From IMG/VR virus record IMGVR_UViG_2778261069_000008: a stretch of DNA of 25,564 bases. One strand, 5' to 3'. The position numbers and the translations under genes are program-made. Every line of letters starts with the position of its first letter. The stretch's first letter is position 1. The DNA comes from a virus. Taxonomy: Duplodnaviria; Heunggongvirae; Uroviricota; Caudoviricetes. The notes below the pieces were generated by a model. That model had not been told where the DNA came from, did not search any database, and saw nothing but the letters and a program-made list of their open reading frames with translations. Below are positions 24,369 to 25,437 of this stretch, in pieces.

Positions 24369-24574
24369 TCAATGATAACGGGAAGGCCAGATTTGCTCCG
24401 GCGTCACGCCTGGTTCTTCGGCGATAGCCGTTCACCTTTAGGGCAGTGGTGGCGGATCGCGTTCGCCAACGTGGAAGAGGCCAGCCCTGCCTTACGGGAA
24501 GCCGCCGCCAGCGACGTGCCGCGTTTTCTCAGCGCGGCCATGATATCGGCTGGATGCCAGTCCGGTTGCGTCAT
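24369..24574 (-). pseudogene. Ner/Nlp-like HTH DNA-binding gene with an apparent frameshift
   Basis: From the ATG at 24574: MTQPDWHPADIMAALRKRGTSLAAASRKAGLASSTLANAIRHHCPKGER then stop after 56 codons; the conserved Ner C-terminus (IAEEPGVTPEQIWPSRYH) is in the adjacent frame, implying about 1 nt lost near 24418-24422. Confidence 0.5.
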
Positions 24575-25041
24575 ACGACCACCTCGCCGATAAATTTCAC
24601 GCCGTCGGCGGTACGCAGCCAGCGCGGGGCTTTCAGCCCTTCAGTAAGGTACCAGACCAATTCACATAACAACCCGGTCAGGGTTTGTTCGGTTTTGGGT
24701 TCCAGCGTGCGCTCCATCAGTAGCCGGAGCAACGCGAGGCTGTATTCACATAACAAATCTGGTTCGGGATCAAAGTGCGCTGGCGCGGCGGGAAGCGTGT
24801 CAACGGTAAGGCTTTCAATAAGATGTGGCGGGATGGGGTCGTTGAGCGTGGGTTGCAGTAGCGCAAGACAGGCGTGAAGCCGTCCGCAGAGCGCCAGCCG
24901 CAGCGCGGGTTCGTCGGTTTCTATCAGGGTTTCAGCGAAGCGGGCGCAGTAGTCGGCAAGGACGGTGAAATCCGTGGCGGCGCTAAAGGGAACAGACAAC
25001 AGATCGAGTAAATCGCAGTCAGGGGTGAGGATTGTAGCCAT
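24571..25041 (-). CDS. Hypothetical 156-aa protein, translationally coupled to the Ner-like gene
   Basis: GGAGG SD about 8 nt upstream of the ATG; Leu/Ala/Pro-rich (MATILTPDCDLLDLL...); stop TGA overlaps the Ner-like ATG (ATGA); no family recognised. Confidence 0.5.
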   Translation of the reverse strand: MATILTPDCDLLDLLSVPFSAATDFTVLADYCARFAETLIETDEPALRLALCGRLHACLALLQPTLNDPIPPHLIESLTVDTLPAAPAHFDPEPDLLCEYSLALLRLLMERTLEPKTEQTLTGLLCELVWYLTEGLKAPRWLRTADGVKFIGEVVV

Positions 25042-25437
25042 AGGGCAACCTCCGATGAGTATTATTCATTACCACCACCAGAGGTTCCAATCTCATGGGT
25101 GGTGGAACCGGACGGGGTTGGAACTACCGGCCTCATCGACACCGGCGCGTCTTGCGACGCCCCCGCCCGGCCCACCATTGAGATGCAGCCAAGCGCACGA
25201 CACAAAAAAAGCGCTAACGCGCCTTGTGTCGTCGATGAAGTTAGCCAGGGGTTCCAATCCCGACGCCTGATTTTGCAGGCGCAGGGGAAGGATACTGCGA
25301 TGGATAAACAGTGGCAAGAATTAACAACAAAAAAAGAATGACGCAGAAGTCTGTCGAGATTTCAATCTATTATTGAACACCGCGTTCCAACAGGCATACA
25401 CTCCTCAGTGAGACTCAGACTGAGCCAGCCTGTGAAC

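Follow-up and report, generated by a model that had tools for sequence, protein, structure and literature searches.

An IsrK/C4-type antisense RNA switch ahead of a conserved acidic protein family in a putative P4-related island at tRNA-Asn

The stretch analysed here (IMG/VR record IMGVR_UViG_2778261069_000008, 25,564 nucleotides; called the window in what follows) carries near its right end, on the minus strand, an open reading frame (ORF) for a protein of 156 amino acids (aa), whose stop codon overlaps the start of a Ner-like gene as ATGA (24574..24571) and which is preceded by a region of repeats and hairpins. A first-pass annotation made from the letters of this DNA had listed these items, had read the overlap as a sign of an operon, and had suggested that the two genes might form a toxin-antitoxin (TA) or defence-related pair. 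All features that it listed exist, with coordinates off by 1-2 bases at most: the 156-aa ORF does have a good Shine-Dalgarno sequence, GGAGG, 7 nt ahead of its ATG, and the coupled ORF is indeed Ner-like (Pfam HTH_35, E = 6e-18). What had been overlooked is that the elements are functional on the minus strand, that two curated Rfam families are represented among them, and that the Ner-like ORF is frameshifted. Read on the minus strand, the order is promoter, hairpin 1, hairpin 2 with the target a1 in its loop, target b1, terminator, C4 RNA, a hairpin with the target a2 in its loop, target b2 fused to GGAGG, and the ATG (Table 1). These matches identify the switch as an immunity system known from P4- and P1-type elements, IsrK/seqA plus C4/CI, in which IsrK has been equated with seqA and C4 with CI (PMC3632133, PMC4825925).

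The -35 and -10 columns of the promoter are conserved in an alignment of 72 distinct leaders, the window and P4 among them. In BLASTN comparisons, the likeness to other loci ends at 25301-25320, i.e. at the -35 box, and this 5' limit is shared by all related leaders, which indicates that the promoter is the boundary of the module. The leader behind it matches Rfam isrK (RF01394) at 25282..25204 on the minus strand with 63.3 bits, above the gathering score of 50 bits, and has the architecture of that family, two 5' hairpins and then an intrinsic terminator; a further match, to c4-a1b1 (RF03163, 'a1, b1 targets of C4') at 25295..25242 on the same strand, reaches 43.9 bits and stays slightly under the gathering score of 46.7 bits. 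The terminator had been noticed before as a CGACACAA...TTGTGTCG inverted repeat at about 25195-25230. This repeat equals the outer stem of the terminator, ACGACACAA/UUGUGUCGU, and was returned by our repeat search as ACGACACAA (25197-25205) and TTGTGTCGT (25224-25232), which are 100% complementary. A run of at least five T residues lies between b1 and the C4 RNA in 64 of the 72 leaders. About 120 bp upstream of the leader promoter begins an IS3-family element, whose left end occupies approximately 25437-25564 on the plus strand (it starts TGAACCGCCCCGGG..., with orfA from MTKNTRFSPEVRQRAVRMVLESQ at 25493); the window ends inside this element, which hides the upstream DNA as it was before the insertion.

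The C4/CI-type RNA is matched by Rfam C4 (RF01695) over its full length (model positions 1-87), with 76.1 bits against a gathering score of 45 bits. In its minimum free energy fold (-54.3 kcal/mol) the segment a' is unpaired and the segment b' lies in a loop, and RNAalifold, applied to 33 C4 sequences, returned the basal stem and two hairpins with 28 pairs, 15 of which show compensatory double changes. Two further characteristics of C4 RNAs are also found: the exposed segments are complementary to target copies both upstream and downstream on the same transcript, and the downstream target b2 overlaps the ribosome-binding site of the first ORF. A repeat search in the window detected the complementarity of a' with a1 (19 nt at 79%) and of b' with b1 (8 nt at 100%), and also recovered the a1/a2 repeat and both hairpins. 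The two copies of GGTTCCAATC reported earlier at about 25090 and 25250 are located at 25083-25092 and 25250-25259; two copies of this decamer compare with 0.09 expected by chance, and both lie within a 15-nt direct repeat. They are the two targets of the C4 segment a'. The hairpin placed at about 25073-25106 was likewise recovered, as CCACCACC (25072-25079) and GGTGGTGG (25098-25105), 8 nt with 100% complementarity, and is the device that presents the downstream target. At least seven of its eight pairs are kept in 69 of the 72 leaders, with compensatory variants such as CCACC/GGUGG and CCGCC/GGCGG, and CUAUCGCC/GGCGAUAG in P4.

To put numbers on the complementarity, we used the longest perfect complement within a leader (cognate) and between different leaders (non-cognate). 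Cognate complements of at least 7 nt were present in 70 of the 72 leaders for a'-a1, in all 72 for a'-a2, in 68 for b'-b1 and in 63 for b'-b2, as against non-cognate means of 4.1-4.5 nt over all four pairs (4.5 for b'-b2). By recognition sequence there are 7 a-classes and 21 b-classes, which occur in 37 combinations among the 72 leaders, that of the window (a' core GUUCCAA, b2 CUCAUCG) being seen once, and in nearly every leader the C4 RNA and both target copies change together. This co-variation between repeats and antisense segments and the conservation of the hairpin through compensatory variants argue that these features have not arisen by chance. The RNA elements, their complementarity and their co-variation are direct observations, as are the conserved gene order and the coding selection described below. 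Genomes with three to six copies of the module exist (e.g. Enterobacteriaceae bacterium 89). Co-resident copies shared both a and b classes in 0 of 37 pairs, compared with 3.2% between genomes, a difference that is not significant in a sample too small for this purpose.

Relatives of the 156-aa protein were located in 80 loci from a one-genome-per-species collection and in others from assemblies, and our counts refer to 95 loci. In 84 of them the 153-156-aa gene has, at a fixed distance upstream, a C4-like element (-140..-55) and an isrK-like one (-255..-162), as located with nhmmer; its conserved partner is the RNA switch in front of it. The exceptions are for the most part derivatives, some of which have lost C4 by deletion between the a1/a2 or b1/b2 direct repeats, and at L041 a divergent C4 is present that the nhmmer search had overlooked. 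Leaders without C4, and sometimes without the terminator too, are those of L034, L092, L055, L037, L061, L069 and L072, natural 'immunity-less' derivatives in which the ORF is intact. At L022 (5841-5925), L024 and L044 an Rfam sRNA-Xcc1 element (69.5 bits) replaces the C4/IsrK leader, and the relatives encoded there have another N-terminus (MPDF...).

The pairing with the Ner-like gene, whose co-occurrence in other genomes the first-pass annotation had proposed to check, proved to be half conserved: a Ner-like ORF with the ATGA overlap comes next in 50 of the 95 loci, whereas in 44 there is none within 400 nt. Loci without the Ner-like gene also lack both recombinases of the island; the island ends there with the 153-aa gene, beyond which ordinary chromosomal genes begin, and no alternative conserved downstream partner was found in them. 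By its sequence, the Ner-like partner is predicted to be a small basic DNA-binding regulator, and the copy in the window appears to be inactivated. A 1-nt deletion near 24425 has shifted its frame; the open frame (56 aa) stops at 24404, where the ancestral frame reached 24369, and the HTH_35 match covers profile positions 1-46 of 75 only, the C-terminal third having been lost to the frameshift. In a comparison of frames with L001 and L019, the lost C-terminal residues IAEEPGVTPEQIWPSRYH were found to sit in the +2 frame. The copy in the window additionally has a W-to-C change in its HWPKGE motif. In the E. albertii type strain (L018) the Ner-like gene carries an internal deletion, and the 156-aa gene is intact both there and in the window. 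The Ner-like partner is basic and the 156-aa family acidic; one entry (P0081) is a natural fusion of a 156-aa relative with a Ner-like protein.

For the 156-aa protein we found 653 close homologues, every one of them named 'hypothetical' and all from Enterobacterales (Escherichia, Salmonella, Klebsiella, Enterobacter, Citrobacter, Dickeya, Pectobacterium, Brenneria and relatives), the top match being a protein of E. albertii with 96% identity. A profile search of 1.84 billion representative proteins returned only 228 clusters, again all named 'hypothetical', and the more distant relatives are likewise 'hypothetical' proteins of Enterobacteriaceae; the long matches among them are read-through ORFs with Ash regions and include no informative fusions. 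One of these read-through ORFs (P0231) runs through an Ash/C4 region, a 153-like gene, a second Ash/C4 region and then an unrelated ORF, which amounts to tandem cassettes, and another (P0218) begins at the 153-like gene and continues in the same layout. The unrelated ORFs that end these two read-throughs begin MTTTPTPSHP... and MAATPTQLHP..., respectively. In viral sequences the family is close to absent: of 2.9 million viral contigs a single one encodes a relative, which is located there in a flanking island, and the sole match in the phage collection is a 1.5-kb unannotated record.

That the protein is unrecognised, as stated at the outset, holds after scans against Pfam, PHROG, NCBIfam and PADLOC, which gave no match (the PADLOC scan, with a cut-off of E <= 0.1, also included the Ner-like and Integrase_1 proteins). 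Its profile had 0 matches to PDB sequences at E <= 10, and a Foldseek search of its model against BFVD returned nothing at E <= 0.001. The combination of hidden Markov model searches and structure prediction that the annotation had recommended thus produced a confident model but no informative homologue. In the AlphaFold2 model the protein forms a four-helix bundle with a C-terminal beta-hairpin (predicted local distance difference test score 86.8, predicted template modelling score 0.81). It has an isoelectric point (pI) of 4.4 and a net charge of -13, and the family as a whole is uniformly acidic (median pI 4.5, median net charge -11). The median pairwise ratio of nonsynonymous to synonymous substitution rates (dN/dS) in the family is 0.23, a value indicative of purifying selection, which marks the ORF as a real, moderately constrained gene.

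The opening residues MAT(I/T)LTP are common to the 156-aa protein and P4 Kil, and a BLASTP comparison with P4 orf151 and the old 'cI' ORF showed no likeness beyond MAT.LTP. A survey of the same slot in prophages made use of a 24-nt conserved stretch of the C4 subfamily, which is present in 108 IMG/VR contigs, 80 of which were examined (L102-L181). In these 80 viral contigs an ATG lies exactly 138 nt past the C4 start, and the encoded proteins open with MAT(V/I)P...; 39 of the contigs have a first ORF of the Rha type (PF09669, Phage_pRha; PHROG 'anti-repressor' or 'transcriptional regulator'), 36 have one of 77 aa, and a relative of the 156-aa protein is never found in this place. The MAT.. start also heads unrelated first ORFs behind the same leader elsewhere, and therefore the ORF start would seem to be part of the leader cassette and its first codons to travel with it. 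Alignments with hhalign of the 156-aa family to the 185-aa Rha-type ORF, the 77-aa ORF and P4 epsilon each gave a probability below 1%. The likeness of the 156-aa protein to Rha/Ant-type anti-repressors is positional only, and by sequence and profile the protein does not fall among them.

Table 1. Features of the RNA switch, the operon and the adjoining island in the window
Feature	Position	Strand	Details
Sigma-70-type promoter	25317..25289	-	-35 TTGCCA, spacer 17 nt, -10 TATCCT (consensus scan); equivalent of P4 PLE
IsrK/seqA-like leader	25295..25204	-	end put at about 25201 including the terminator; holds upstream target copies a1 and b1
Target a1	25257..25251	-	UUGGAAC; in hairpin loop; complementary to C4 segment a'
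Target b1	25240..25233	-	CUUCAUCG; complementary to C4 loop b'
Intrinsic terminator of short leader RNA	25232..25197	-	stem GGCGC-GUUA-GCGC, then U7; scan match 25225..25208 plus T-tract
C4/CI-type antisense RNA	25182..25095	-	about 88 nt; basal stem and two hairpins; Rfam C4
C4 loop b'	25138..25132	-	CGAUGAG; in loop of second hairpin
C4 single-stranded stretch a'	25124..25118	-	GUUCCAA
Presenting hairpin	25105..25072	-	C4 3' arm (CCACCACC) and downstream arm (GGUGGUGG); shows a2 in loop
Target a2/seqC	25092..25084	-	GAUUGGAAC; in loop of presenting hairpin
Target b2	25059..25053	-	CUCAUCG; last G shared with GGAGG Shine-Dalgarno (25053..25049) of 156-aa ORF
156-aa ORF	25041..24571	-	first translated gene after RNA switch; position of kil in P4
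Ner-like (HTH_35) gene	24574..24369	-	start overlaps 156-aa stop
MazE/PemK(MazF)-like toxin-antitoxin pair	23431-24021	-	between Ner-like gene and EFASI RNA
EFASI RNA	22809..22681	-	Rfam, 94.8 bits; directly upstream of Integrase_1 recombinase
Integrase_1/Phage_int_SAM_2 recombinase	22641..21739	-	Pfam Integrase_1, E = 5.9e-59
P4-type integrase	19033-20397	+	51% identical to P4 Int (tblastn); adjoins tRNA-Asn
tRNA-Asn	18898-18973	+	tRNA at island end

The backbone common to the Ner-linked loci consists of a tRNA, a P4-type integrase, a gap of about 1.4-2 kb, an Integrase_1 recombinase preceded by an EFASI RNA, sometimes a toxin-antitoxin pair, the Ner-like gene, the 153-156-aa gene and the C4/IsrK leader, an order that recurs in E. 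coli, Klebsiella and further loci. The second recombinase (Integrase_1) accompanies the Ner-linked module in 38 of 51 loci. A MazF homologue occupies the position of the toxin-antitoxin pair of the window in only 6 of these 51, which makes the pair an optional insert. Past the promoter, the cargo is unrelated between islands and comprises AbiE, TacAT, type I restriction-modification (RM) systems with DarTG, ATP-dependent nucleases, and Rhs/PAAR/type VI secretion system (T6SS) genes. P4 genes were searched by tblastn with P4 proteins (E <= 1e-5, coverage >= 40%) in the window, which stops 520 bp past the 156-aa ORF and to which extent its gene-content negatives apply, and in the 6-10 kb flanks of the 95 loci: there were no homologues of P4 alpha, epsilon, sid, delta, psu, orf151 or cnr in any of these, and for vis there was one vis-like match only, at L037. 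The element in the window thus has the integrase beside a tRNA that is typical of P4-like satellites but none of the core genes alpha, epsilon, sid, delta, psu and vis, and for lack of such homologues it is not a P4-like satellite in the usual sense. Published accounts of GI-pheV, the EARL islands, MIR17-GI and the Klebsiella tRNA islands do not describe the module. On its other side, the tRNA-Asn island stands back to back with a lambdoid-type prophage (1-17906 of the window), which contains a four-tRNA cluster (2780-3089), a sok RNA (6005-6179) and a DicF RNA (13430-13481), and whose integrase ORF (16739-17764) adjoins a tRNA-Ser (17817-17906).

We take the region to be an immunity cassette together with its early operon, transcribed from right to left on the minus strand and belonging to a P4-related genomic island integrated at tRNA-Asn, and put the probability of this reading at about 0.8. 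The way in which it would work, from the processing of the RNA and repression in vivo to the derepression signal and the function of the protein, can be sketched by drawing the individual steps from P4, P1 and Gifsy-1. A constitutive promoter would start a leader with a1 and b1, and most transcripts would end at the terminator as an IsrK/seqA-like RNA of about 80 nt, whereas those reading through would contain the C4/CI-type RNA and, behind it, the targets for a second time. By analogy with P1 and P4, the C4 RNA is probably cut out of these transcripts. Pairing of its a' and b' segments with a2 and b2 would occlude the Shine-Dalgarno sequence, uncouple translation and, as in P4, favour premature termination; a1 and b1, on leader RNAs that are short or still being made, would be bound by C4 as well. 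In a cell with a resident island, the 156-aa and the coupled Ner-like proteins would consequently be off, and they would be made when C4 is absent or titrated, i.e. upon entry into a new cell or when matching decoy RNAs pile up. A role of the short leader RNA as an activator or as a decoy may be considered by comparison with Gifsy-1 IsrK.

As to the 156-aa protein itself, we can offer a tentative suggestion, namely that it acts early by binding another protein, in the manner of an anti-repressor or as a modulator of some basic DNA-binding protein. What leads us to it is which slot the gene occupies, that the protein is an acidic helical bundle with a basic coupled partner, and that C4-less copies retain an intact ORF; the presence of Rha-type anti-repressors in the same prophage slot also suggests a protein-binding early effector. 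Several observations weigh against our interpretation. The functional guess derives from gene position and charge only; the fold matches of the model are generic helical bundles; and no relationship could be detected between the protein and any anti-repressor, P4 epsilon, orf151 or, past the first 7 residues, Kil. The route by which P4 overrides its immunity, with an upstream late promoter, vis/alpA and a long Eta frame, is absent, as the likeness between loci ends at the -35 box, the Ash/Eta frame is closed by stop codons and the IS3-family element lies 120 bp upstream. Moreover, with its Ner-like gene broken, the operon of the window may be partly defunct. A more far-reaching idea, in our view rather improbable, is that the 153-156-aa family is the dedicated early effector of hitherto undescribed, P4-derived, replication-less islands at the side of tRNA genes, with the backbone described above and a changing cargo of defence, Rhs/T6SS and toxin-antitoxin genes. 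The protein would be made when C4 is absent or titrated, e.g. after entry into a new cell or when a related element infects. Its target would be another protein: it might counter the repressor of a helper prophage, imitate DNA as an anti-defence factor or switch island excision, and the 7 x 21 a/b classes would provide each island with a private immunity.

Among the alternatives to this reading, the view that the module in the window is a decaying, non-functional remnant is doubtful and still deserves to be taken seriously, given the frameshifted Ner-like gene, the IS3-family element 120 bp upstream of the promoter and the absence of P4 replication or capsid-hijacking genes in the tblastn searches of the window and the flanks of the 95 loci. 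However, the promoter, the terminator, C4, all four target sites, the Shine-Dalgarno sequence and the 156-aa ORF are intact and mutually complementary, and the ORF is 96% identical to a protein of E. albertii. It is unlikely that the locus is a type I-like addiction module in which the 156-aa protein is a Kil-like toxin held off by C4, thereby stabilising the island. The gene does stand in place of the cell-killing kil of P4 (PMC10111431), antisense control at a ribosome-binding site resembles type I TA logic, and IsrK-like elements of P4-like prophages were scored as required in S. Typhi by transposon-directed insertion-site sequencing (PMC3632133). Yet those S. Typhi loci could not be tied to the 156-aa family, a soluble acidic helical bundle of 150 aa is unlike the small membrane toxins, and no likeness to Kil extends past 7 residues. 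In addition, at least 7 loci have lost C4 by deletion between the a1/a2 or b1/b2 repeats with the ORF still intact, and the persistence of such C4-less copies argues against a strong toxin.

A quite different and very improbable possibility is that the 156-aa ORF forms only the C-terminal end of a longer protein of the Ash/Eta type, whose translation would run through the RNA region, like that of P4 eta with the nested kil. Some database entries are N-terminally extended 'ash family' proteins with PF10554, a 74-aa ORF (25317..25093) is in frame with the 156-aa ORF, and the first residues MAT(I/T)LTP match P4 Kil. In the window, however, this frame is closed by a TGA at 25095..25093 and by a TAA and a TGA right before the ATG, and no long form of the Ash/Eta type is open there; the 74-aa upstream ORF has no Pfam match, the number of open codons upstream ranges from 1 to 112 among the loci listed, only 2 of which extend past the promoter, and the conserved Shine-Dalgarno sequence and ATG favour a stand-alone ORF. 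The 'Ash family' labels on some relatives come from read-through of the conserved RNA region. The initial reading of an operon is upheld, but the suggestion of a toxin-antitoxin or defence function for the gene pair found no support in the analysis, as there is no match to a TA or PADLOC family, the partner decays, and C4-less derivatives keep the ORF. That the pair is an anti-phage defence system, or a defence regulator, within the island cargo would fit the cargo next door in related islands, which is rich in AbiE, TacAT, type I RM with DarTG, an ATP-dependent nuclease and Rhs/T6SS toxins; but the module is constant while the adjacent cargo changes wholly between loci, and as the likeness ends at the promoter, the module belongs to the backbone and not to any single cargo system, which leaves this explanation with only a slim chance. 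Slimmer still is that of a type II toxin-antitoxin pair, with the Ner-like protein as helix-turn-helix (HTH) antitoxin and the 156-aa protein as toxin. Two small, overlapping, co-directional island genes, one of which encodes an HTH DNA-binding protein, and the opposite charges of the two products are what would be expected of such a pair. Pairing is not obligate, though, as 44 of the 95 loci show, and the Ner-like gene is frameshifted in the window and internally deleted in L018 beside an intact 156-aa gene, which would be lethal were Ner the antitoxin of an active toxin; together with the lack of a family match this makes a type II system unlikely. The true MazEF-like pair next door is a separate insertion, found in 6 of the 51 Ner-linked loci.

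The RNA switch as such is textbook P4/P1 biology, and the structured upstream region is thereby explained and not new. What is new is modest: an unannotated, conserved acidic family is tied to the switch and so receives a concrete regulatory context. This family, with its 653 close homologues and several copies in some genomes, is nearly absent from recognised phage and satellite collections. Also new is a backbone, found repeatedly in such islands, in which P4-type immunity occurs without the genes for P4 replication or capsids. Many enterobacterial tRNA islands with defence or competition cargo have the switch at their constant end, which hints that they may still respond to infection or transfer in the manner of a satellite. 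In 72 leaders, two independent recognition segments co-vary three ways, and this furthermore provides a natural set of orthogonal antisense/target pairs. Should the 156-aa protein be an anti-repressor or an anti-defence factor, it would link the biology of the islands to helper phages; should it do nothing, the locus would be a P4 relic.

Compared with Mu Ner and E. coli SfsB (Nlp), both of the HTH_35 type, the Ner-like gene of the operon is alike in matching PHROG 769 ('transcriptional repressor') and the NCBIfam SfsB model, and its full-length relatives are basic proteins of 68-86 aa. In contrast, the Ner-like ORF falls far under the SfsB equivalog cut-off (67.8 vs 150 bits), and the copy in the window is cut by the frameshift past residue 49 and lacks the conserved C-terminal IWPSRY segment. 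The immI region of P1, reportedly described by Citron and Schuster in 1990, is said to combine a' and b' segments with two target copies, b2 at the ribosome-binding site of the first ORF and a coupled second gene; the slot behind c4 is occupied by icd-ant in P1. The window resembles P1/P7 immI in having two antisense segments, each with an upstream and a downstream target, in the position of b2 at the ribosome-binding site of the first ORF, in the translational coupling of the second gene to this ORF, and in matching the c4-a1b1 model, although the score of this match is below the gathering score. Unlike in P1, the regulated genes are neither icd nor ant, and the host element is an island and not a plasmid prophage.

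The isrK-orf45-anrP locus of Gifsy-1, in which the short IsrK RNA activates translation in trans (PMC4825925), shares with the window the IsrK-type leader with its terminator and a read-through mRNA whose first ORF controls translation of a downstream regulator (PMC4825925). It also has a C4-like stable RNA, STnc1160, downstream of IsrK (PMC4825925), as is the case for C4 in the window. The payload differs: orf45-anrP fills the slot in Gifsy-1, the 156-aa family that of the window (PMC4825925, PMC10111431). In P4 both Rfam families recur, with order and strand unchanged, and match the P4 genome at 8507..8420 (CI immunity RNA) and 8692..8615 (seqA leader). Further likenesses are a PLE-like promoter and an intrinsic terminator with an A-rich/U-tract outer stem, made of different letters, an antisense RNA between two target copies, the downstream one in the loop of a hairpin formed with the 3' arm of the RNA, a first ORF that opens MAT(T/I)LTP behind GGAGG, and a P4-type integrase beside a tRNA. 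In P4, however, the slot holds kil nested in eta, the mechanism of which is summarised in PMC10111431. The first ORF of P4 is the 65-aa Kil, that of the window encodes the unrelated 156-aa protein; the window has neither a continuous Eta frame nor upstream vis/PLL; and its operon points toward the integrase. The recognition sequences differ as well, being GUUCCAA and CGAUGAG in the window and UUCUCAC and CUGUGAA in P4, which implies that the island has an immunity specificity different from that of P4.

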